In this document: piece after piece, positions 3,392 through 25,640 of the stretch
Numbering within the stretch: position 1 is the stretch's first letter
Layout of the letters: each line of letters begins with the position of its first letter
From: Gammaproteobacteria bacterium
Lineage (GTDB): Bacteria; Pseudomonadota; Gammaproteobacteria; UBA12402
NCBI GenBank assembly: GCA_050123375.1
Contig: JASFHF010000006.1
Span: forward strand, 2,309 to 66,308
Reading direction: 5' to 3'
Length of the DNA stretch: 64,000 bases
Notes under the pieces: model-generated
What the model was told of the DNA's origin: nothing
Database searches by the model: none
The model's input: only the letters and a program-made list of their open reading frames with translations
Position numbers and translations under genes: made by a program

Positions 3392-3540
3392 GACGGGACG
3401 GAGCTTCACTCATTAAAAGTTGTCGGGTCGCGAGCTTTACATGGTTACGAGGTAATAGCTAAATTCTTTGAGGGTCGGAGCTTTACATGATTACAAAGCA
3501 ACAAGCAAGGCCTTGTAATTATGTAAAGCTCGCGACCCAA
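3392..3540. repeat. family-A palindromic intergenic repeat (full copy 3470-3538 plus degenerate half-copies)
   Basis: GAGGGTCGGAGCTTTACATGATTACAAAGCAACAAGCAAGGCCTTGTAATTATGTAAAGCTCGCGACCC has ~25-bp inverted arms. Source of spurious ORF 3487..3693. Confidence 0.8.
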
Positions 3541-3547
3541 CAACCTT

Positions 3548-4906
3548 TTAAGATCTTTTCATCGCTTCGAAAAATTCATTATTGGTTTTGGTGGTGCGCA
3601 GACGGTCATATAAAAATTCAATTGCGGCTAATTCGTCCATTGGTTGTAATAATTTACGCAAGATCCACATTTTTTGTAGTTCATCAGCGCTAACCAAAAG
3701 TTCTTCACGACGCGTGCCGGAGCGGTTAATGTTAATTGCAGGAAATACGCGTTTTTCCGCGATACGTCGATCCAAATGGATTTCCATATTACCAGTACCT
3801 TTAAATTCTTCGTAGATAACTTCATCCATTTTGGAGCCGGTATCGATTAATGCTGTAGCTAAGATGGTTAAGCTTCCGCCTTCTTCAATGTTACGTGCAG
3901 CACCAAAGAAACGTTTAGGACGATGCAGCGCATTTGCATCCACACCACCAGTTAGAACTTTACCGGAAACTGGTACTACAGTGTTATACGCACGTGCTAA
4001 ACGGGTAATTGAGTCTAACAAAATTACCACATCGTGTTTGTGTTCCACTAGACGTTTAGCTTTTTCAATAACCATTTCTGCAACTTGTACGTGGCGAGTT
4101 GCTGGTTCGTCAAAAGTACTGGCGATTACTTCACCTTTAACTGAACGATCCATTTCGGTAACTTCTTCAGGACGCTCGTCGATTAATAACACCATTAAAT
4201 GACATTCTGGATGATTGCTTTCGATGGAATGAGCAATATTTTGCAGCATCATGGTTTTACCAGCTTTTGGCGGTGAAACGATTAAGCCACGTTGTCCTTT
4301 TCCAAAAGGGGCAACTAGATCAATGATTCTGGCTGTGATATCTGCAGTGCTGCCATTGCCTCGCTGCATTAGTAAGCGTTCATTGGCGAATAGTGGAGTG
4401 AGGTTTTCAAATAGAATTTTATTCTTGGCGCTATCTGGATCATCATAATTAATTTTATCAACTTTTAATGTGGCAAAATAACGTTCTGCTTCTTTCGGTG
4501 GACGAATTTGTCCGGAAATTGTATCGCCAGTACGTAAGTTGAAGCGGCGAATTTGACTAGGTGATACGTAAATATCATCAGGACCAGGTAAATAAGAACC
4601 TTCGGCAGAACGCAGAAAACCAAAGCCGTCAGGTAGAATTTCTAAAACTCCTTCGCCATAAATAGCTTCGCCATTTAGTGCGTGTGCTTTTAGGATTGAA
4701 AAAATTAAATCCTGCTTGCGCTGACGCACATTTTCTAAGCCAATTTTGTTGGCCATTTCAGTTAATTCCGCAGGAGATTTATGTTTCAGCTCTTGTAAGT
4801 GAAAAGTTTCCTTTTTTTTGTCAGTGGGTATTTTAGCGGTTTTTACTTTAGGACGTGTTACAGCTGTTTTAGCTGTGGGTTTATTAGTAGTTTTATCTTC
4901 TGGCAT
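3548..4906 (-). CDS. rho: transcription termination factor Rho with ~33-aa lysine-rich N-terminal extension
   Basis: [13 protein letters not shown], Walker [18 protein letters not shown], and full RecA-like domain present. trxA lies upstream on the same strand as in E. coli. Confidence 0.95.
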
Positions 4907-10709: not shown

Positions 10710-10791
10710 GCCGGAGTGGTGGAACTGGTAGACACGCCATCTTGAGGGGGTGGTGGCGAAAGCCGTGTCGGTTCGAGTCCGACCTTCGGCA
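10710..10791 (+). tRNA. leuU: tRNA-Leu (anticodon GAG), long variable arm, CCA not encoded
   Basis: Hand-folded: acceptor GCCGGAG/CTTCGGC (one G-U), D stem GTG/CAC, anticodon stem CCATC/GGTGG with loop TTGAGGG, variable hairpin GGCGAAAGCC, T arm GTCGG-TTCGAGT-CCGAC, discriminator A. Confidence 0.8.
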
Positions 10792-12213: not shown

Positions 12214-13410
12214 ATGCTGCAAGTATTAGCTAATTTTTGGCATTTATGCTGCACGGTCGGCAAACGCTGTATTGCGGATCGGTTAACGGGGGCGGCAGCA
12301 TCTTTAACTTTTACCACTTTATTGGCTTTAGTACCGTTAATTACAATTTGTATTGCAATTTTCTCTGCTTTTCCAATTTCGCATGCTATTGGTCATAACG
12401 TTTCACAATTTATTTATCAGAATTTTTTACCAACTTTTGGTAAAGTAGTCCAAAAATATCTACAGGATTTTGTAGTGCAGGCGGGTCGGTTATCTTTTCT
12501 TGGGATTATTGCTTTAGTTGTGACTGCAATTTTAATGATGTTAACAGTTGAACAAACATTTAATCAAATTTGGAAAGTTAGATATCGAAGATTAGAATTA
12601 AAATCTTTATTAGTTTATTGGGCAGTATTAAGTTTAGCGCCAATTTTTATTGGATTAAGTATTGCAGCTACTTCTTATGTTATTTCTTTGCCATTAGTTG
12701 TCGGAGCAGTAGCAAAACTTGGAATGAAAACAATTTTATTACACAGCGCACCGTGGATTTTTACCATATTGGTTTTGTGGTTGTTATATGTAATTGTGCC
12801 AAATTGTAAAGTTCCGATACGTTATGGTTTGGTTGGCGCAATAATTGCAACGCTTCTATTTCAAATGGTTAAAACTGGATTTATAATTTATATTAATCGT
12901 TTTGCAACTTATGGTTTTATTTATGGCGCTGTGGCAATTATACCAATTTTTTTATTGTGGGTTTATTTGTTGTGGTTGGTGGTATTATTTGGAGCTTTAA
13001 TCACAAATGTTTTAACAGTTTATTCTTATAGCGGAAGAGTGGGGAAATTTGATGGGTTTACTCATGCTTTTTTGTGGTTGGGTTATTTATGGCGCGCGCA
13101 GCAACAAGGAAAAAGTTTATCACTAAAACAATTGGCTTATACTTTGCGCGGGCATTATAAAATTGATATTTATTTGCAATTGCAGGCTTTGTTAAAAGCT
13201 AAATTTATTTCGATTACTGAAAATAATCGTTATATTTTATCACGTGATTTTTCTAAAACTACTTTAGCAGATTTGTATCAGGCTTTGCCGTGGAAATTGC
13301 CGCATGTAAAAGTTCATGAATTGTTTTCAGAAAAAATGCAGCAAGTTCTACAGGATGCGGATAAATCGGTGAATGAGAAGCTTAATGTTTCGTTAAGCGA
13401 ACTATATTAA
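12214..13410 (+). CDS. YihY/BrkB-family inner membrane protein
   Basis: AASLTFTTLLALVPLITICIAIFSAFP and multiple TM helices. C-terminal ~100-aa extension. AAGGAGGA RBS. Confidence 0.75.
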   Translation: MLQVLANFWHLCCTVGKRCIADRLTGAAASLTFTTLLALVPLITICIAIFSAFPISHAIGHNVSQFIYQNFLPTFGKVVQKYLQDFVVQAGRLSFLGIIALVVTAILMMLTVEQTFNQIWKVRYRRLELKSLLVYWAVLSLAPIFIGLSIAATSYVISLPLVVGAVAKLGMKTILLHSAPWIFTILVLWLLYVIVPNCKVPIRYGLVGAIIATLLFQMVKTGFIIYINRFATYGFIYGAVAIIPIFLLWVYLLWLVVLFGALITNVLTVYSYSGRVGKFDGFTHAFLWLGYLWRAQQQGKSLSLKQLAYTLRGHYKIDIYLQLQALLKAKFISITENNRYILSRDFSKTTLADLYQALPWKLPHVKVHELFSEKMQQVLQDADKSVNEKLNVSLSELY

Positions 13411-13417
13411 TATCTTA

Positions 13418-13960
13418 GAGGGTCGGAGCTTCACATGATTACAAAGCAACAGGCAGGGCATTGTAATTATGTGAATTTACATCCTTTTAGCTCCAAGTTT
13501 TTAATTATTCCCTCAGTTCTTATAAAATTTCTTAGAGGGTCGGAGCTTCACATGATTACAAAGCAACAGGCAGGGCATTGTAATTATGTGAATTTACATC
13601 CTTTTAGCTCCAAGTTTTTAATTATTCCCTCAGTTCTTATAAAATTTCTTAGAGGGTCGGAGCTTCACATGATTACAAAGCAACAGGCAGGGCATTGTAA
13701 TTATGTGAATTTACATCCTTTTAGCTCCAAGTTTTTAATTATTCCCTCAGTTCTTATAAATTTCTTTGAGGGTCGGAGCTTCACATGATTACAAAGCAAC
13801 AGGCAGGGCATTGTAATTATGTGAATTTACATCCTTTTAGCTCCAAGTTTTTAATTATTCCCTCAGTTCTTATAAAATTTCTTAGAGGGTCGGAGCTTCA
13901 CATGATTACAAAGCAACAAGCAGGGCATTGTAATTATGTGAAGCTCGCGACCCGAGTTGC
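13418..13960. repeat. tandem array of ~4.6 copies of a 117-bp unit derived from the family-A palindromic element
   Basis: Copies start at about 13418, 13535, 13652, 13769 (1-bp deletion) and 13885. Inter-copy sequence is identical, so this is not CRISPR. Only the last copy carries the right arm ...GTGAAGCTCGCGACCC. Produces spurious MITKQQAGHCNYV ORFs 13435..13788 and 13785..14189. Confidence 0.85.
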
Positions 13961-15232
13961 TTATGTTGTTATTTTGGTTTGCAAGAAATTTATCAGCTCA
14001 TCATTTTTAATTTGCGTTATGTTGGTATCTGTACGGGATTTATATTCAATCGTGCCGTTATCTAAACCTTTTTCACCAATGACTAAACGGTGTGGAATAC
14101 CAATTAGTTCCATGTCAGCAAACATTGCGCCAGGACGTTCGGCGCGATCATCAAATAAAACTTCAAAGCCTGCTTTAGTTAGTTTTTGATAAAGTGATTC
14201 TGCAGCAATTTTTACTCGTTCGGATTTGTTCATGGCAATTGGAATAATCGCGATTTGAAACGGCGCTATAATTTCCGGCCAAATAATTCCTTTATCATCA
14301 TGATGTTGTTCAATTGTTGCGGCAACGGTTCTGGAAATCCCGATGCCGTAACATCCCATTAACATTGGGATTGCTTGGCCTTGTTCATCCAATACAGTAG
14401 CCTTCATTGATTTGGAATATTTATCTCCAAGTTGAAAAATTTGTCCAACTTCGATGCCGCGTGCTAACTTTAATTTGCCTTTGCCGTCAGGACTTGGGTC
14501 GCCTTCTTTTACGTTGCCATGGTTAATCATTTCAACATTAGCGGCATAGTCGCTGGCATCACTGTATGCAATTGCGTCTTCACCAGATTCTGCAATTACC
14601 TGAAATTCTTGTGACATGTTGCCGCCTATTTGTCCGGTCGAGGCAATTACTGCGCGAAAATTTAGACCCAATCGGGTGAAAATTTTGTTGTAGGTCTCAT
14701 ACATTAAATCGTAGGTTTTTTGTAAACACTCTTTAGTTAAGTGAAAAGAATATGAGTCTTTCATCAAAAATTCACGGCTGCGCATTACCCCAAAACGCGG
14801 ACGAATTTCATCACGAAATTTAGTTTGAATTTGGTATAAGTTAATTGGCAGTTGTTTGTAACTATGCAATTCGTGTCGTGCAATTTCGGTAATTACTTCT
14901 TCGTGAGTTGGACCATAACAAAATTCGTGTTCGTGCCGATCAGTAATCCTTAATAACTCTTTACCATATTGATCCCAGCGTTCGGATTCTTTCCATAATT
15001 CGGCAGGAATCAGTGTAGGCAGCAATAATTCTTGCGCACCAGATGCATCCATTTCTTCGCGCACGATGTTTTCAACTTTGTGCAGCACGCGCCAACCAAG
15101 CGGTAACCAGGAATAAATTCCCGCGCTTAATTTGCGAATCATGCCGGCACGCAGCATTAATTTATGACTGATAAGTTCGGCATCCGTTGGTGTTTCTTTG
15201 AGTGTTGCTAGTAGGTATTTGCTGGTGCGCAT
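13961..15232 (-). CDS. proS: proline--tRNA ligase lacking the INS editing domain
   Basis: Collinear with E. coli ProS ([15 protein letters not shown]...). Jumps from ...DYAANVEM directly to [17 protein letters not shown], so the ~180-aa INS domain is absent. True start is M22 of the listed ORF with GGAGA RBS. Upstream codons belong to a palindromic repeat. Confidence 0.85.
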
Positions 15233-15235
15233 GGT

Positions 15236-15375
15236 GTCTCCAAGTGTTTTGGGGGTCGGGTCTTCACTCATTACATGATGCAACATGCAGTGCATATGTA
15301 ATGAGTGAAGACCCGACCCCGTATATTATTACCGCGTAACCATGTAAAGCTCGCGTCCCGCCAACATCCCATACA
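15236..15375. repeat. family-B palindromic repeat (GGGGTCGGGTCTTCACTCATTACATGATGCAACATGCAGTGCATATGTAATGAGTGAAGACCCGACCCC) plus family-A fragment
   Basis: Arms are near-perfect inverted repeats. The same family occurs at 22880-22990. Confidence 0.8.
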
Positions 15376-15377
15376 TT

Positions 15378-16148
15378 TTATAGAATGCACTTGGTTAATG
15401 CAAACTTTACGTTTTCATTAGTTTGTTTTGGATGGTCGGTTACATCTGGAATGATAAAACGAATTGTCATACGATGACGGCCAGCACTGATTTCAGGATA
15501 AAATATGACTTCTTTCGGTAGAGTAACACGAATTAGTTGATATGGCAGTTGTGGATCTAAAGTTTCATGATAAAAGCCTTGTTTGGCAATGCGGTCATGT
15601 GCTTTTGAGCTGTTTCTAATAATATTTAACAGGAGATTTATTGCTTGACGAATTTCAGCCAGTTCAGCTAGCCAGGCATCAATTTGAATTTGGTGAGATT
15701 CAGCAGGATGATTTAGCCAGTAGAAATAACCAGGATTATCTATACAACCATCACCGCCAGGGCTAAGTAAGCTTTGGCGTATTGTAGTTAAAAACTCATT
15801 AGCGCGTAGGTTTTGTGCTATTTTCCCTTGAGTGGTGATGAGGTGATTTTTATACTGTTTTAATTGGGTGAGAGTAGTATTTAATGTAGCTTGATTAACT
15901 TTAGGATCAGTATGCAGACGATGTAAAACTGTGATATGGCGATCAAACTCTTTGCTTAGTTTGGTTTTAAAATCCGGCCGGTCTAGAATGTTAATTGCAT
16001 CAATCATTAATCTAATGATTGAACGTGTAATTTGAATTGAAGTAGGCTGGCTAGTTGTAAGGGCATTCAGTTGCTGTAATATGTGTTCAAGTCTAAGGCT
16101 TACGCGGACTAGCTCATTTAGGGGTTGTTCGTAGGTAATTGATTCCAT
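15378..16148 (-). CDS. zapD: cell division protein ZapD
   Basis: YEQPLNELVRVSLRLEHILQQL, SPGGDGCIDNPGYFYWL, GFYHETL and MTIRFIIPD are collinear with E. coli ZapD (YacF). Confidence 0.8.
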   Translation of the reverse strand: MESITYEQPLNELVRVSLRLEHILQQLNALTTSQPTSIQITRSIIRLMIDAINILDRPDFKTKLSKEFDRHITVLHRLHTDPKVNQATLNTTLTQLKQYKNHLITTQGKIAQNLRANEFLTTIRQSLLSPGGDGCIDNPGYFYWLNHPAESHQIQIDAWLAELAEIRQAINLLLNIIRNSSKAHDRIAKQGFYHETLDPQLPYQLIRVTLPKEVIFYPEISAGRHRMTIRFIIPDVTDHPKQTNENVKFALTKCIL

Positions 16149-16199
16149 TATTTATAAATATTACCCGAGTCTTATCTATCAAACAAGGATATTATGAGT

Positions 16200-16405
16200 G
16201 TGGGGACGAGTCTTTATTAATTACAAAGCAATAAGCTAGATTCTTTGAGGGACGGAGCTTTACATAGTTACGGAGCAATAAGCAAGCTTCTTTAAGGGTC
16301 GGAGCTTCACATGATTACAAGGCAACAAACATGGTCTTGTAATTATGTGAAGCACACGACCCGACTACTTCATGCTTTGTAATTAGTAAAGACCTGCCCC
16401 CAAAT
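16200..16405. repeat. nested family-A palindromic repeats
   Basis: Outer GGGGACGAGTCTTTATTAATTACAAAGCA...TGCTTTGTAATTAGTAAAGACCTGCCCC encloses the inner GGGTCGGAGCTTCACATGATTACAAGGCAACA...GTGAAGCACACGACCC. Confidence 0.75.
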
Positions 16406-16443
16406 TCATGATATAATTAACAAATCTTAAGGAGGAAATTATT

Positions 16444-17022
16444 ATGAGTGCATTAGTTATTGTTATAATTATAGCAGTGGTTTTACTATTTGGTATTGTT
16501 GCGATTTATAATATGCTAATTCGGCTAATAGAAGCCGTGCGTAATAACAAGAAACAAATTGATATTCAGCTTGATCGCCGTTATAAGGTTTTTGAATCGT
16601 TAATTAACGTAGTAAAGAAATATATGGATTATGAGCAAACCACTTTAAAGGATGTGGTGAAGCTCAGGGGCCAAGCGCAACAAGCAGTTGCTAAAGGCGA
16701 CACCAAGGGACAAATTGAAGCAGAAAATGCTATTTCAAAAATAGCTTCTGGAATTAATTTAGTATTTGAGCGATATCCGGATTTGAAGGCGGATAAAAAT
16801 GCGTTGCAATTGCAAGAAGAAATTGTGAATACCGAAAATAAATTAGCTTATTCTAAGCAAGCTTATAATGATAGCATCGAAAAATATAATGCTACTAAAA
16901 AATCATTTTTCCAAAGCATGGTAGTTAGTTTATTTAAAGGCAGGCTTGATTTTGATTTTCCTTACTGGAGTTTAAGTGAAGAACAAATTAAGACGCAGGA
17001 AGATTATAAAGTAGAGTTGTAA
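16444..17022 (+). CDS. lemA: LemA family protein
   Basis: N-terminal TM plus IYNMLIRLIEAVRNNKKQIDIQLDRRYKVFESLINVVKKY matches the LemA signature. AAGGAGGA RBS. Confidence 0.8.
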   Translation: MSALVIVIIIAVVLLFGIVAIYNMLIRLIEAVRNNKKQIDIQLDRRYKVFESLINVVKKYMDYEQTTLKDVVKLRGQAQQAVAKGDTKGQIEAENAISKIASGINLVFERYPDLKADKNALQLQEEIVNTENKLAYSKQAYNDSIEKYNATKKSFFQSMVVSLFKGRLDFDFPYWSLSEEQIKTQEDYKVEL

Positions 17023-17032
17023 TGAGAATATA

Positions 17033-17150
17033 GGCGGGACGGGGCTTTACATAATTACAAGTGCTTTGCTTGTTGCCTTGTAATATGTAAAGCTCCGTCC
17101 CTCAAAAAATCTAGCTTATTGCTTTGTAATTAGTAAAAACCTGACCCTTA
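17033..17150. repeat. family-A palindromic repeat (inverted orientation) plus half copy
   Basis: GGGACGGGGCTTTACATAATTACAAGTGCTTTGCTTGTTGCCTTGTAATATGTAAAGCTCCGTCCC. Confidence 0.75.
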
Positions 17151-17184
17151 AAAAAGTTATGTAAGAACTGAGATCTAGATAAGT

Positions 17185-18222
17185 ATGAATAAAAACTACA
17201 TGCAATTCAAAGCTGCCGATTGGCGTGCAACTTTAGCTGAAAACCAACGTAAAACTTTTGGTGTAATTGCAGCATTTATGCTGATTTACATTATAGTTGG
17301 TTTAATTGTTGATATGTATATTCATGGTGGATTTATTGCGGGCAATTTTGGGCGGGTTTTTGTAGCGCTTATCAGCTTTCAAATTACTCCTTGGGCGACA
17401 ATTACCATGTTGATTGTCGCTGCTATTTCGTTATTAATTACTTTTGCGTTGCATGATCGGTTGATATTGTTGGGAACTAATAGCCGTGAAATTACACCAA
17501 AAACTGCGCAAAATTTAGCGGAACAACAATTATATAATGTGGTTGAGGAAATGAAAATTGCTGCAGGCATGCGTTATATGCCGAAGGTATATTTGATCGA
17601 AGCTGATTATATGAATGCATTTGCCAGTGGTTATAGCGAAAAATCTGCTTTAATTGCTATTACACGCGGATTGTTGCAAAAATTAGATCGTGATGAATTG
17701 GCTGCAGTAATGGCGCATGAATTAAGTCATATTCGTCATGGTGATATCAAGTTGACTTTAACCGCTTCAGTGTTGAGTAGTTTAATGTTAATTGTGGTTG
17801 ATATATTATTTTATAACGTAATTTTTGGCGGAAGCCGCAGACGGCAAAGTGGTGATAATAGATTTTTAATGATAATTATTTTATTGCGTTATTTATTACC
17901 GGTTATTACGATATTGTTAATGTTATTTTTAAGCCGTACACGTGAATATATGGCAGATGCTGGCAGTGTGGAATTAATGCGGGATAATACTCCATTAGGG
18001 CGAGCATTATTGAAGATAAATCAAGATCATCAAGATAATTTAGATACATATAAGCAAGAATATGGTCAAACCAAGCATGAGGATATTCGGCGTGCTGCTT
18101 ATATTTTTGACCCAATTTCAATCAAAGCTGATCCAGTGGTTTCTTTTACCAGCTTGTTTTCTACCCACCCATCAATTCCTTCACGCTTGCGTAAATTGGG
18201 ATTTCGGAAGCGTGAAGCTTAA
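17185..18222 (+). CDS. M48-family zinc metallopeptidase (HtpX-like), membrane-bound; 3' end remodelled by cassette insertion
   Basis: Carries the HEXXH motif in AVMAHELSHIRHGD with flanking TM segments. Lies next to lemA, a common pairing. The last codons overlap the left 30-bp direct repeat. Confidence 0.75.
   Translation: MNKNYMQFKAADWRATLAENQRKTFGVIAAFMLIYIIVGLIVDMYIHGGFIAGNFGRVFVALISFQITPWATITMLIVAAISLLITFALHDRLILLGTNSREITPKTAQNLAEQQLYNVVEEMKIAAGMRYMPKVYLIEADYMNAFASGYSEKSALIAITRGLLQKLDRDELAAVMAHELSHIRHGDIKLTLTASVLSSLMLIVVDILFYNVIFGGSRRRQSGDNRFLMIIILLRYLLPVITILLMLFLSRTREYMADAGSVELMRDNTPLGRALLKINQDHQDNLDTYKQEYGQTKHEDIRRAAYIFDPISIKADPVVSFTSLFSTHPSIPSRLRKLGFRKREA
18176..18205. repeat. left 30-bp direct repeat TTCCTTCACGCTTGCGTAAATTGGGATTTC flanking brnTA cassette
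   Basis: Identical to 18823-18852. Confidence 0.9.
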
Positions 18223-18468
18223 TCAATCAGAATGTTCGCTATAATATTCTGCGTATTTGTCTAATAATACCCGTATCATTTTTTGATATTGAGTGTGACG
18301 TGATTTTGCTGCTTTTTTGAAATATTTAAGGCTTGCTTTAGTAAGCGATAATGTAATTTTAACAGTTTCTTCTTTTAAAACTAATTCGTCGGGACCCGGT
18401 AAAAAGTCATGTCGTATTTTGATTTCATCAATCGGTTCATCAGTGTATTTTACTTTTTTCTTTCTCAT
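18223..18468 (-). CDS. brnA: BrnA antitoxin (DUF4415/COG3514, RHH)
   Basis: DEPIDEIKIRHDFLPGPDEL...KITLSLTKASLKYFKKAAKSRHTQYQKMIRVLLDKY fits the BrnA pattern. Overlaps the upstream brnT gene. Confidence 0.7.
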   Translation of the reverse strand: MRKKKVKYTDEPIDEIKIRHDFLPGPDELVLKEETVKITLSLTKASLKYFKKAAKSRHTQYQKMIRVLLDKYAEYYSEHSD

Positions 18469-18730
18469 ATATTTTTTTCCCCTTGCGCCAATAACCTGCG
18501 CCTATTATGCGTATTTTATAGTTTCTGTAAGTAAATCTTACAGTCATAATGGCATTGTCGACTTTGCCGAAACAATAGTATCTTTTTTCTGAATGGCTAT
18601 GATTTAAGTCTTCAGCGATAACACGATGTGGGTCTAAAAATGCTTTTTGAGCCTCAAAGAATGACACACCATGTTTGTGGCGATTGATTTTATCTTTTTG
18701 ATCATCCCATTCAAAAGTTGTTATTCTCAT
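18440..18730 (-). CDS. brnT: BrnT toxin (DUF497 ribonuclease)
   Basis: MRITTFEWDDQKDKINRHKHGVSFFEAQKAFLDPHRV...IRIIGAGYWRKG is the BrnT signature. Toxin-first order as in brnTA. Confidence 0.75.
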   Translation of the reverse strand: MRITTFEWDDQKDKINRHKHGVSFFEAQKAFLDPHRVIAEDLNHSHSEKRYYCFGKVDNAIMTVRFTYRNYKIRIIGAGYWRKGKKIYEKEKSKIH

Positions 18731-18822
18731 TATTGAATCATATCATATATCAATATAAAAAGCAATATAAAAATACTTATATATATACTTATTTTTATAA
18801 GGTTTTATTGGTTATTTGCTAG

Positions 18823-18852
18823 TTCCTTCACGCTTGCGTAAATTGGGATTTC
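18823..18852. repeat. right 30-bp direct repeat of brnTA cassette; retains ancestral 3' end of M48 gene (..RLRKLGFQKR*)
   Basis: In-frame continuation gives SRLRKLGFQKR-TAA. Confidence 0.85.
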
Positions 18853-18901
18853 AAAAGAGGTAAGTCTGGTTTTTATCAGAATCTTGCGTTAAAATTGAAA
18901 T

Positions 18902-19369
18902 ATGGAAATATCATTACTAATTCAAATTTTAGTTGCATTTGTTATTGGGGCGATTATTGGTTTGGAGCGTGATTTTCATGGTAGTCCGGCGGGTGTTAGG
19001 ACTTATGCGGCAGTTTGTCTTGGTGCCTGTGTGTTTGGGCTGATTTCTACCCATGCTCAGGGAGCACATTATTACCAGAGTGTTGCCGATCCCACCCGAA
19101 TTGCAGCGCAGATAGTTACGGGTATTGGTTTTTTGGGCGCGGGAGTGATTTTTCGTACTGGTGTTACAACCGTTGGTTTGACTACAGCCGCTACAATTTG
19201 GGCTACCGCGGCGGTTGGTTTAAGTATAGCATTTAGATTGTATAGTGTGGCAATATTTGCAGCGGTTTTGATTGTTGTTACTTTAGCTCTTAATGAATTA
19301 CCTTTGTGGGAGAATTTTAAGAATAAAATTAAAAAACGCAGAATTGAATATATGAAATCTAAAGAATAA
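18902..19369 (+). CDS. mgtC: MgtC/SapB family membrane protein
   Basis: VIGAIIGLERDFHGSPAGVRTYAAVCLGAC...GIGFLGAGVIF is the MgtC signature. Confidence 0.85.
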   Translation: MEISLLIQILVAFVIGAIIGLERDFHGSPAGVRTYAAVCLGACVFGLISTHAQGAHYYQSVADPTRIAAQIVTGIGFLGAGVIFRTGVTTVGLTTAATIWATAAVGLSIAFRLYSVAIFAAVLIVVTLALNELPLWENFKNKIKKRRIEYMKSKE

Positions 19370-19374
19370 TAATT

Positions 19375-19953
19375 ATGAGTATGTTAAATAATTATATAAC
19401 TTATCAGAATGTAGTTAATGCATTACAGTGTCATCATGCTGCGATATTTCCAGCAGAATTTCATGGTTATATGTGCGGAATTATTTGCGGCGGTAATTAT
19501 ACTGAAAATGAGGCGGGTTTTCGTATCGTGTTAGGTATGCTGCAGAATGAGAATTTTAATTCTAAAGAGGCTAAAGCTATTGCAGCAGAATTAATGTTAA
19601 ATACTTTTCATCAGTTACATGATGTTAATTGTGATTTTAAGTTATTATTGCCGGATGATGAGCAGCCAATTAGTTTGCGCAGTCATGCGTTGGCAGTATG
19701 GTGTCAAAACTTCTTAGGCGGATTGGGGTTGTCGGGAATTGACAGCAAAAAAATACAGCAGCAAGAGATTTATGAAATAATATTAGATATTGCAGAAATT
19801 GCAAAACTAAAATATAGCGATTTATTGGATCAGGATAGTGAAGAACAAGAAATGGAATTGATGGAACTAATTGAATATGTTAGAGTTGCGGTGTTGTTGA
19901 TTTATACCGAAAGTATGAGTCAGAATGATCAATCAATAAATGTGCGGCATTAG
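19375..19953 (+). CDS. ygfB: UPF0149 family protein YgfB
   Basis: PAEFHGYMCGIICGG...LLLPDDEQ...ALAVWCQNFLGGLGL...EMELMELIEYVRVAVLL is collinear with E. coli YgfB, which precedes pepP there too. Confidence 0.8.
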   Translation: MSMLNNYITYQNVVNALQCHHAAIFPAEFHGYMCGIICGGNYTENEAGFRIVLGMLQNENFNSKEAKAIAAELMLNTFHQLHDVNCDFKLLLPDDEQPISLRSHALAVWCQNFLGGLGLSGIDSKKIQQQEIYEIILDIAEIAKLKYSDLLDQDSEEQEMELMELIEYVRVAVLLIYTESMSQNDQSINVRH

Positions 19954-19994
19954 AGTTGAAGTTAGTTTGACTTATATCTCAGTTTTTACATAGT

Positions 19995-20190
19995 ACCTTA
20001 GAGGGACGGAGCTTTACATGATTACAAAGCAACAAACAGGGCATTGTAATTATGTAAAGCTCACGATCCGGGTTACCCAACTTCTTTTATCTATATCTCG
20101 GTTATTACATAGTACCTTAGAGGGACGGAGCTTTACATGATTACAAAGCAACAAACAGGGCATTGTAATTATGTAAAGCTCACGTCCCGT
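19995..20190. repeat. two tandem family-A palindromic repeats (~119-bp period)
   Basis: TTAGAGGGACGGAGCTTTACATGATTACAAAGCAACAAACAGGGCATTGTAATTATGTAAAGCTCACG(A/T)CCCG occurs twice. The second copy supplies a false N-terminus (MITKQQTGHCNYVKLTSR) to the pepP ORF. Confidence 0.8.
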
Positions 20191-21465
20191 ATGCTTATGG
20201 AGTTTTCTGCGAGACGAAAAAAGTTATTTGCAAAAATGCGGCCGCATAGTGTTGCAATTGTTTTTGCTGCTCCTCAGTATTTTCGCAATGGTGATGTAAC
20301 GTTTCCTTATCGCCAAAATAGCGATTTTTATTATTTAACTGGATTTACCGAACCTAATGCAGTTGCGGTTTTTGTTAAATCAACATCAGCAGAACAATAT
20401 GTGTTATTCAGTCAACCGAAGAATTTGATTAAAGAACAATGTTATGGTTTTCGTGTTGGCCAGGAAAAAGCTGTCGAAGTATATGGAGTTGATCAGGCAT
20501 ATTCAGTTGATGAAATACATAAACATATGCCGCAATTGTTACAGGATGTGCAAGCGGTATATTATCAGTTTCATCATCCATTACAATATAATAAGCTGAT
20601 AGATGAGTGGTTAGGTAAAAGAAATTGTGGGCCGTGGAAAATTAATTTAGCTGATATTGTTCATGAGATGCGTTTAATTAAAAGTCCAGCGGAAATTGGA
20701 TTATTAAAGCAGGCTGCGGAGATTACTGCGCACGCACATTTAAAAATTATGCAGCAATGTAAACCCAAAATGTATGAATATGAGTTAGTAGGAAAATTGT
20801 TCCATGAATATTATGTGCATGGTGCGCAAGCGGCCGCATTTCCGCCGATTGTAGCAAGCGGTTACAATAGTTGTGTTTTGCATTATGAAGAAAATAACCG
20901 ACAAATTCACGATGGTGATTTGGTGTTGGTTGATGCCGGATGTGAATATCAATATTATGCAGCAGATGTTGCGCGCACTTTTCCGGCGAATGGTAAATTT
21001 ACTCGCGAACAAGCGCTAATCTATGAAATTGTGTTATTAGCGCAACAAAAGGTTATAGAACAAATTAGGCCGGGCAGTAATTGGTATGATGGACAAAAGA
21101 TTGCTGTGCGAACTATTACAGAAGGTTTGCGTGATCTTGGAATTTTGCGCGGTAATGTTGATAAATTAATTAAGCAGCGAGCATATAAACCTTTTTATAT
21201 GCACAAAGTTAGTCATTGGTTGGGATTGGATTCTCACGATGTTGGTGCTTTTAAAATTCATGATCAAGAAACGCGGTTGCAGCCTGGTATGGTTTTAACC
21301 GTTGAGCCAGGAATTTATATTTTACCCAACATGAAAAATGTTGATGAAAAATGGTGGGGGATTGGTGTTCGTATCGAAGACGATTTGTTGGTGACAGAAA
21401 ATGGGCATGAGGTTTTAACTAATGCGGCACCGAAAACTCTCGCAGAAATTGAGGATATTTTGTGA
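20191..21465 (+). CDS. pepP: Xaa-Pro aminopeptidase PepP
   Basis: N-terminal AMP_N domain and M24 motifs (HWLGLDSHDVG, VLTVEPGIY, GIGVRIEDD). True start taken as MLMEFSARRKKLF after the repeat. Confidence 0.85.
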   Translation: MLMEFSARRKKLFAKMRPHSVAIVFAAPQYFRNGDVTFPYRQNSDFYYLTGFTEPNAVAVFVKSTSAEQYVLFSQPKNLIKEQCYGFRVGQEKAVEVYGVDQAYSVDEIHKHMPQLLQDVQAVYYQFHHPLQYNKLIDEWLGKRNCGPWKINLADIVHEMRLIKSPAEIGLLKQAAEITAHAHLKIMQQCKPKMYEYELVGKLFHEYYVHGAQAAAFPPIVASGYNSCVLHYEENNRQIHDGDLVLVDAGCEYQYYAADVARTFPANGKFTREQALIYEIVLLAQQKVIEQIRPGSNWYDGQKIAVRTITEGLRDLGILRGNVDKLIKQRAYKPFYMHKVSHWLGLDSHDVGAFKIHDQETRLQPGMVLTVEPGIYILPNMKNVDEKWWGIGVRIEDDLLVTENGHEVLTNAAPKTLAEIEDIL

Positions 21466-21771
21466 GGGTTTGGGATTATTTTTTTGCGATTCGATTTTAA
21501 GTTTTGCTTCCTCAATTAGTCTAAATATTACTACTAATGCTGTTAGGCTTAATGTTATTTTGCTATATAATCTTATTTCCATACGGTCACGAATTTTTCC
21601 CAATAATTCTTCATAGGTTTTGCATTTTTTTTCTTGCATTAGTTTTTCAAGTAATTCTTTAGCACATGTTGCCTTATATTTTTTTTGAAGTGATACGGGA
21701 ATATCAGAACATTCAGAGTAATTTATTTTTCGTTTTTTGAAAAAACGAAAAAAGTATTCACAAAAACACAT
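21415..21771 (-). CDS. hypothetical protein
   Basis: 118-aa ORF downstream of galK. 3' end overlaps pepP 3' end. No recognisable domain. Start uncertain. Confidence 0.25.
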   Translation of the reverse strand: MCFCEYFFRFFKKRKINYSECSDIPVSLQKKYKATCAKELLEKLMQEKKCKTYEELLGKIRDRMEIRLYSKITLSLTALVVIFRLIEEAKLKIESQKNNPKPSQNILNFCESFRCRIS

Positions 21772-25537: not shown

Positions 25538-25640
25538 AAGATGGTTGCATAACATAAGGATATAGCCGGTGAATACCCATGTTTTGGCATTAGAACAGGT
25601 GCTATTATCTTGTGTCATGACATATACCCCTTGTTGCTAG
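25538..25640 (-). pseudogene. duplicated 5' fragment (promoter plus ~20 codons) of the small membrane protein gene at 29061..29306
   Basis: Minus-strand ATGACACAAGATAATAGCACCTGTTCTAATGCCAAAACATGG... encodes MTQDNSTCSNAKTW.., ~85% identical to 29306-29250. Upstream homology continues about 40 bp. Confidence 0.6.

Follow-up and report, generated by a model that had tools for sequence, protein, structure and literature searches.

A brnT-brnA toxin-antitoxin cassette between two allele-like copies of the htpX gene end in an uncultured Legionellales bacterium

The subject of our analysis was a small toxin-antitoxin (TA) cassette at the 3' end of htpX, the gene for an M48 zinc metalloprotease, in a 64,000-nucleotide stretch of contig JASFHF010000006.1 (assembly GCA_050123375.1, positions 2,309 to 66,308). 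We call this whole stretch the window, and all coordinates given without a locus handle refer to it; handles such as L001 denote the loci used for comparison. As judged from its sequence, the feature is a brnT-brnA type II TA operon of 617 bp that has no mobility gene and is bracketed by two direct repeats of the final ~30-43 bp of htpX. The genes and features at the locus, in the order of their positions, are the following.

17185..18222, plus strand: htpX (M48 zinc metalloprotease), the target gene, intact; PF01435 4.8e-39, NCBIfam NF002775 HtpX equivalog 1.2e-140, 97% identical to the HtpX of L001
18176..18205, plus strand: left 30-nt direct repeat, translated, encoding (I)PSRLRKLGF
18179..18217: 13-13-13 hairpin CTTCACGCTTgCG / TAAATTGGGATTT / CGgAAGCGTGAAG (stem/13-nt loop/stem), between the convergent htpX and brnA
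18206..18222, plus strand: non-resident tail of htpX, (C)GG AAG CGT GAA GCT TAA = RKREA*; junction aligned with L001, L081, L082, L083 and L167
18223..18468, minus strand: brnA, BrnA-family antitoxin, 81 aa, assigned by similarity to homologues; ribbon-helix-helix fold taken from the family annotation
18440..18730, minus strand: brnT, DUF497 ribonuclease-type toxin, 96 aa; PF04365 7.9e-23, PDB 7vd7 'toxin' 2.5e-6
18731..18822, minus strand: AT-rich operon leader (26-27% G+C) with a promoter-like site and a near-palindrome
18823..18852, plus strand: right 30-nt direct repeat, an untranslated relic
18853..18864, plus strand: resident ancestral tail, (C)AA AAG AGG TAA G = QKR*, continuous with the native GTCTGGTTTTTATCA...mgtC flank and matching in form the single-copy sites of L001, L081 and L082
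18902..19369, plus strand: mgtC, the native downstream neighbour (PF02308), with a sequence ancestry unlike that of htpX

The repeat, TTCCTTCACGCTTGCGTAAATTGGGATTTC, is an exact 30-mer that occurs twice in the window, both times on the plus strand, with 617 nt between the copies; the cassette plus one repeat measures 647 bp. The first-pass annotation had placed the two exact copies at these positions and both are there, while a third is absent from the 64-kb window at up to three mismatches and 100 shuffles gave no match at all, which makes the chance expectation none. Without gaps the similarity reaches 42 nt at 88% identity (18176-18217 vs 18823-18864). The left copy lies within the last codons of a 345-aa HtpX/M48 open reading frame (ORF) that ends in ...LGFRKREA with its TAA at 18220-18222, and the final 47 nt of htpX (18176-18222) consist of this copy and the new tail. 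Read in the same frame, the right copy gives ...LGFQKR and a TAA at 18861-18863, after which GTCTGGTTTTTATCA begins. Both copies are also present in an independent assembly, a Logan contig from SRR11697952 (L156), which is 100% identical to the window across 18081-19381, and the proteins of the locus are deposited at NCBI as MGD9152510-12 (uncultured Legionellales metagenome-assembled genome).

Between the copies there are only two overlapping minus-strand ORFs, brnT and brnA, and the 92-nt AT-rich leader, which is the content that had been ascribed to the insert at first pass. BrnT scores 81 bits against PF04365, for which the cut-off is 34.5, and covers profile positions 1-75 of 77; its closest relatives share 79-84% identity. 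The assignment of BrnA comes by way of its homologues, as its direct Pfam match is sub-threshold (PF12441, 20.2 bits vs a cut-off of 28) and there is no match to it in NCBIfam. It is 49% identical (E 5e-26) to the brnT partner at L101, which itself passes PF14384 at 26.5 vs a cut-off of 26.1, and 44-65% identical to the partner ORFs at 7 other brnT loci, with 20 residues invariant across all 8 partners. The start of brnA overlaps brnT by 29 nt on the same strand with the toxin first, an order that is identical at all related loci inspected, and its stop codon abuts that of the convergent htpX. In the leader, a promoter-like site (-35 TTTATA from 18771, -10 TATGAT ending at 18742) belongs to a class whose count is at chance level, and a near-palindrome at 18759-18806 may serve as operator for BrnA; promoter and operator are putative roles.

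We compared the locus with related genomes, using a scan of a genome collection that returned 80 Legionellales htpX loci and protein look-ups that led to L081, L082 and L083. None of the 80 loci has brnTA at htpX, which speaks against a recurrent targeting of this gene. The closest relative, L001, has an HtpX that is 97% identical, the same lemA-htpX-mgtC-ygfB-pepP order, a single copy of the repeat and no TA module, with mgtC beginning 41 nt after htpX. L081, L082 and L083 likewise have one copy each and no TA module, and a fifth relative, L167 (HtpX 84% identical), is also free of the cassette. In L001, L081, L082 and L083 the gene ends in GF, three codons and a stop; L001, L081 and L082 keep mgtC downstream, and in all three GTCTGGTTTTTATCA follows the htpX stop. 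Since the right copy in the window has exactly the native form seen in these single-copy relatives, it is the resident ancestral end of htpX. The relatives show that the cassette is an insertion: the uninterrupted site exists in related genomes, the right copy is the resident gene end, which is no longer translated, and it is the left copy that completes the working htpX. This bears out the view of the first-pass annotation that the right copy is the ancestral gene end, and a case that could have spoken against it, two 30-mers without a TA module, was not seen in any related genome. The further expectation that relatives would have one 30-mer and an end in ...FQKR* came true for the single copy, in four relatives, and failed for the tail, which reads RKQ, RRR, RES or RKR and in none of them QKR.

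As separate observations on this junction, the htpX-mgtC interval is a variable spot: L167 has a different, 257-aa ORF there (3533-4596), convergent with htpX and without a flanking repeat, and in L083 synteny is broken directly after htpX, from 4018 onward.

The two copies of the repeat differ from each other in a patterned way. There are no mismatches in the first 30 positions and 5 in the next 12, after which agreement resumes at AAG; with 42 positions in all, a clustering of the five differences in the last 12 has a probability of 9e-4. The differences coincide exactly with the three tail codons, where natural htpX alleles are distinguished from one another by 2-6 changes in 8 positions. 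The left tail, CGG AAG CGT (RKR), has 2 differences in 8 from the alleles of L001, L082 and L083 and 4 in 8 from the right copy; counted otherwise, it agrees with the right copy at 7 of 12 positions and with L001 at 6 of 6 at its start. L081 is the closest match for the right tail with its TAAG. At the position of the stop codon in all relatives the left copy reads GAA, and the ORF runs two further codons (EA) to a TAA. Mutation after the insertion is a poor explanation of these differences, because the untranslated right copy should decay and yet its 30 nt are intact. The two repeats resemble a pair of htpX alleles more than one sequence duplicated by fill-in. Several claims made at first pass are modified by this. 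Integration by duplication holds in so far as the cassette sits between two copies, but these resemble two alleles with different tail codons; the left gene end does come with non-resident DNA, but its first three codons are those of an htpX-tail allele and not arbitrary insert sequence; and the C-terminus of HtpX has indeed been rewritten, in the trivial form of QKR to RKREA.

The sequence ancestry of the region changes at the cassette, according to the identities and the synonymous divergence (dS) listed here gene by gene.

lemA: window-L001 95.3%, window-L081 87.9%, dS (window-L001) 0.18
htpX: window-L001 94.9%, window-L081 87.1%, dS (window-L001) 0.23
mgtC: window-L001 83.3%, window-L081 87.7%, dS (window-L001) 0.74
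ygfB: window-L001 90.1%, window-L081 85.8%, dS (window-L001) 0.48
pepP: window-L001 88.3%, window-L081 82.0%, dS (window-L001) 0.46

Mismatches to L001 number 14 in the 300 nt before the junction vs 44 in the 300 nt after it (p = 4e-5), and mgtC, unlike lemA-htpX, is closer to L081 than to L001. Over 16444-19953 as a whole, the window is a mosaic relative to L001 and L081, with dS from L001 of ~0.2 in lemA-htpX, ~0.47 in zapD, ygfB and pepP, and 0.74 in mgtC. This mosaic ancestry indicates that homologous exchange among these Legionellales lineages is frequent.

A number of mobility signatures were looked for at the locus. The 617 bp contain no recombinase or transposase, only the two small ORFs, and the flanking lemA, htpX, mgtC, ygfB and pepP are housekeeping genes, syntenic with the cassette-free L001, L081 and L167, with no recombinase in the flanks shared with L001 and L081. 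No terminal inverted repeats link 18206-18240 with 18790-18822; a scan with the dif consensus gave 5 matches vs 5.5 expected, none of them at the cassette ends; and no palindrome of attC size (about 55-140 nt) follows brnA, from whose stop to the repeat there are 17 nt. An integron gene cassette was rejected, the sole palindrome there being the hairpin at the htpX end, which is common to cassette-free relatives. We also rejected a DDE transposon, insertion sequence (IS) or miniature inverted-repeat transposable element because terminal inverted repeats are lacking and the repeat, 30 nt here, is of variable length elsewhere, a tRNA or transfer-messenger RNA (tmRNA) target because the sole tRNA gene is at 10710, and a phage origin because IMG/VR holds no relative of BrnT. 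In 15000-21500 the Rfam families gave sub-threshold miRNA-like matches alone, which lie on dispersed hairpin repeats.

The hairpin at the left junction folds with -19.1 kcal/mol on the plus strand (z -3.6) and -18.9 kcal/mol on the minus strand (z -4.1), and the right repeat copy has no comparable fold. In the cassette-free L083 and L081 this fold recurs in weaker form, at -15.9 and -13.9 kcal/mol. The six bases that extend the stem in the window, GTGAAG, include the position of the lost stop codon. The hairpin may have been selected, either to keep the convergent transcripts of htpX and brnTA apart or to protect their 3' ends; it may be left over from snap-back synthesis when the ends were joined; or it may have arisen by chance.

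Direct repeats of this kind also flank brnTA cassettes elsewhere. A metagenome scan with BrnT yielded 72 loci, of which about 43 had enough flanking sequence for a repeat search, in which the 500 nt upstream of brnT were compared with the stretch from 100 to 900 nt downstream of it for exact direct repeats of at least 19 nt. Such repeats flank 8 of the about 43 brnTA loci, compared with 3 true hits at about 890 control positions taken from these loci. The 19-mer of L138 is multi-copy and this locus was dropped, leaving 7/43, which differs from the controls with a Fisher test value of 3e-8. The repeats at five of the loci have the following properties.

L093: 45 nt, 43 identical; ends inside the last codon of a CorA gene, and the base after both copies completes Leu, followed by the stop; cassette co-directional with the target
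L101: at least 22 nt; begins one base before the stop codon of the neighbour; cassette co-directional with the target
L111: at least 210 nt, 195 identical
L118: 105 nt, 97 identical; spans the nuoN stop codon; convergent as in the window; found in five assemblies, with only the relic copy polymorphic
L119: 76 nt, 67 identical

These five repeats are mutually unrelated in sequence and each is unique among the loci sampled. No cassette-end motif is visible by eye in the junction contexts, of whose ends no alignment or motif search was made. It is the structure alone of these other loci that suggests target duplications. Such a repeat is lacking at most brnTA loci, some of which are found in IS contexts; two of these, L157 and L160, were considered for the same class and set aside as IS-associated. 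In L157 (Ca. Paracoxiella cheracis CP186486.1, 591-4664) brnTA lies between two direct DDE_Tnp_1 IS copies in an arrangement like that of a composite transposon, and in L160 (1415-3909) brnTA and a 66-aa ORF are flanked by a ~94-nt direct repeat that adjoins an IS30-like transposase. A different kind of repeat was noted in L087, where two 32-nt direct copies (2068-2099 and 2609-2640) lie 541 nt apart and ~1.4 kb from the brnTA pair; the repeat resembles a tmRNA/tRNA 3' end (GGTTCAATTCCCGCCGCCTCCACCA) and looks like an att-type duplication.

The reading that we prefer, with a probability of roughly 60%, is that the repeat is an overlap left when host homologous recombination took up DNA from a related donor, and that it is neither a fill-in of the transposase type nor an att site. 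We infer this route because the repeats are variable and target-derived, the copies differ in the manner of alleles, and no enzyme is encoded in the unit. Among the other explanations, a site-specific integration would make the 30-mers the attL and attR of a small integrative element, a remnant that could be mobilised in cis by a tyrosine or serine recombinase encoded elsewhere or since lost, and that supplied a new 3' end to its target. Such an event would leave what is seen, an identical 30-bp direct repeat where a conserved gene ends and a gene end supplied by the element, and the 13-13-13 inverted repeat at the left junction is superficially like a recombinase core site. Its 13-nt spacer, however, is unlike a tyrosine recombinase core, and the weaker homologous hairpins of L083 and L081 identify it as a feature of the htpX end and not of the element; there is no recombinase in the 617 bp or in the syntenic flanks shared with L001 and L081, a conserved cassette end is not visible by eye, and related brnTA cassettes have unrelated repeats of 20 to 210 nt in both orientations relative to the target gene. 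We consider this account unlikely, and find it similarly improbable that the cassette was inserted de novo at a staggered break, where fill-in would have duplicated 30 or ~42 nt of one resident sequence and the tail would have mutated later. A fill-in would explain the sharp left boundary of the repeat, the 30/30 identity and the extension to 42 nt at 88%, but five changes in 9 nt with none in 30 nt are unlikely as decay (P about 9e-4), decay would be expected in the untranslated right copy, and the left tail matches alleles of other lineages; moreover, transposase and terminal inverted repeats are lacking, and repeat length is not fixed among the related cassettes.

The two remaining explanations seem to us highly improbable. 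A reversed polarity, in which the repeat-flanked cassette is ancestral and the relatives lost it through recombination between the repeats, draws on the ability of a 30-bp direct repeat to support, as we would expect, a precise deletion. With all five relatives (L001, L081, L082, L083 and L167) free of the cassette it requires repeated independent losses against TA addiction, and it still leaves the origin of the repeat unexplained. Very little credence can also be given to an assembly artefact that threaded together an empty-site genome and a separate 647-bp circle or another locus sharing the 30-mer. The data are metagenome-assembled and a repeat of 30 is k-1 for the commonly used k = 31; against this, either path requires both junctions to exist physically, two assemblies are 100% identical over 1301 nt, and analogous brnTA loci have imperfect repeats of 45-210 nt, impossible as k-mer overlaps, one of them seen in five assemblies from different samples. 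We note about the Logan contig, whose pipeline presumably used k = 31, that it passes the exact 30-nt (k-1) repeat twice, where a plain de Bruijn graph would branch.

Under host homologous recombination, which we favor, the donor DNA would have come from a related lineage that already carried an htpX end joined to brnTA. The incoming DNA would be anchored by homology in lemA-htpX, its far end (...GCTAG) would be linked to the resident chromosome at a point before the resident stop codon, and the overlap of the donor and resident htpX ends would stay behind as the repeat. Two variants can be envisaged, a homology-facilitated illegitimate recombination and a Campbell-type entry of an excised circle through 30-43 nt of homology; that a duplication is the outcome of such events is our own extrapolation. 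Because the duplication keeps htpX intact, the insertion would cost little. After entry, BrnT as a stable RNase toxin and BrnA as a labile antitoxin and autorepressor would penalise loss of the cassette through recombination of the repeats, as would follow from established TA biology.

Several points weigh against this reading. The donor configuration, an htpX allele ending in ...RKR beside brnA in another lineage, was not found, and no empty site was recovered for the other repeat-flanked brnTA loci; in the case of L118, no NuoN relative is nearer than 68% identity, and the cassette is present in each of the five contigs whose NuoN is identical. For this uncultured organism natural competence would have to be presumed, and L001 is the only closely related genome for comparison. 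The ancestry switch could stem from an exchange in the L001 lineage, and the cassette could be a barrier to recombination tracts and not part of one; zapD is also at 87.5%, a sign that mosaicism is general in the region. A single duplication at a staggered cut could likewise have produced the 30/30 identity and its sharp boundary, should the likeness of the left tail to htpX tails be coincidental. Finally, at 30 nt exact (42 nt at 88%) the repeat in the window is at the lower bound of the criterion of >30 bp that Furuta et al. used for restriction-modification (RM) units.

The window contains other repeats, which we list as observations in their own right. A dispersed family of hairpin-forming repeats of ~60-130 nt with the core TTGTAATTATGTAAAGCTCACGTCCCGAC, present also in L001, has sites at 13405-13942, 16263-16395, 17025-17184, 19970-20221, 31680-31812, 32481-32735 and 36633-36686. 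The first of these comprises four tandem 117-nt units, and in the copy at 19970-20221 the beginning of the pepP ORF is duplicated (MITKQQTGHCNYVKLT at 20018 and 20137); the sub-threshold miRNA-like Rfam matches are hairpins of this family. Tandem repeats are found at 50323-50470 (30 nt, ~5 units, inside the minus-strand ORF 50149-51939) and at 32832-32921 (15 nt, ~6 units). Two 40-nt palindromic units (59298-59337 and 59389-59428), 91 nt apart, lie upstream of the ORF at 59456, and a 76-nt direct repeat with 80% identity (25557-25632 and 29245-29320, 3.7 kb apart) may mark paralogous gene starts.

How chromosomal TA pairs come to lie at conserved sites that have no transposon, phage or integron in their vicinity has long been asked and so far been answered only loosely. 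Taken alone, the locus is an ordinary small genomic islet; it is lifted above this by its clean polarity, its allele-like copies and the recurrence of target-derived repeats around related brnTA. It is a clean example, with polarity set by empty sites, of a signature previously documented for RM units, the other classic addiction modules. We would tentatively extend this, while regarding the extension as doubtful, to the proposal that brnTA cassettes, and possibly type II TA modules generally, may form a class of recombinase-free mobile units that pass from one related chromosome to another by homology-assisted insertion, with long target duplications of varying length left where conserved genes end; through recombination of the two repeats, a circle made up of the cassette and a single repeat would be set free, able to re-enter any genome with the target. 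A life cycle of this kind through circle release has been proposed for RM systems and, to our knowledge, never demonstrated. If such a class exists, it would explain chromosomal TA 'islets' that lie far from mobile elements and leave the host gene undamaged, and if the finding holds up it would link TA and RM mobility to one route based on host recombination. The prediction that can be tested is that donor alleles will be found in the gene-proximal repeat copy, together with excised circles.

Several known systems resemble the locus in part. As a TA pair, it shares with BrnT/BrnA of Brucella abortus, reportedly described by Heaton et al. in 2012, a DUF497 toxin that comes first, an overlapping gene for a BrnA-family antitoxin, a bicistronic operon and an AT-rich leader, but the pair in the window is only distantly related to it and its antitoxin meets the Pfam thresholds via a homologue alone. 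The pdif modules of Acinetobacter plasmids, which are said to carry brnTA and other TA pairs (work attributed to Blackwell and Hall, 2017), are alike in that TA cargo travels in small separate modules that encode no recombinase; they differ in being bounded by inversely oriented 28-bp XerC/XerD sites, whereas the repeats in the window are direct and target-derived and no such site is present at the ends. Phage 21 and e14 at icd and the islands at tRNA and tmRNA genes are integrative elements that supply a replacement 3' end, and integrase-less elements mobilisable in cis belong with them. The locus is like these in that a conserved gene has a direct repeat at its 3' end, that incoming DNA completes the gene and that the old end stays behind as a relic, but the unit in the window has no recombinase, no att sequence conserved among related cassettes and only 647 bp.

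Homology-facilitated illegitimate recombination in natural transformation, of which de Vries and Wackernagel reportedly gave an account in 2002, is one variant of the route that we prefer. The process is documented in naturally transformable bacteria (PMC6382021) and combines a one-sided homologous anchor with a join at 3-10 bp of microhomology and no element-encoded enzyme, which would give overlaps of variable length beside the anchor gene; it differs in that, at the locus in the window, the presumed outcome is a duplication rather than a deletion. The nearest likeness in overall form is to RM gene units, for which insertion with long target duplication has been described (Nobusato et al. 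2000, Gene 259:99; Furuta, Abe and Kobayashi 2010, PMC2853133). Their repeats are of about 30-420 bp, variable, and often span the start or stop of the flanking gene, no mobility gene is present, the mechanism is unknown, and many of the units are in naturally competent species (PMC2853133). A later review by the same group ascribes the long-target-duplication mode to RM systems (PMC3874152), and for type II TA systems we found no report of it in the literature searched, outside of which subscription journals largely fall. Common to both are a small unit of the addiction type without integrase or transposase, a repeat that is single-copy at the empty site, an intact neighbour gene, and a repeat length of tens to hundreds of bp that varies between events, with repeats that often span a stop or start. 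The differences are that the cargo in the window is a type II TA pair and not an RM system, and that its two copies are readable as two alleles with an ancestry switch, which points to a homology-assisted acquisition. On these sequence comparisons, the locus appears to work like the long-target-duplication class of RM units, and it is outside that class as originally defined since its cargo is a TA pair.

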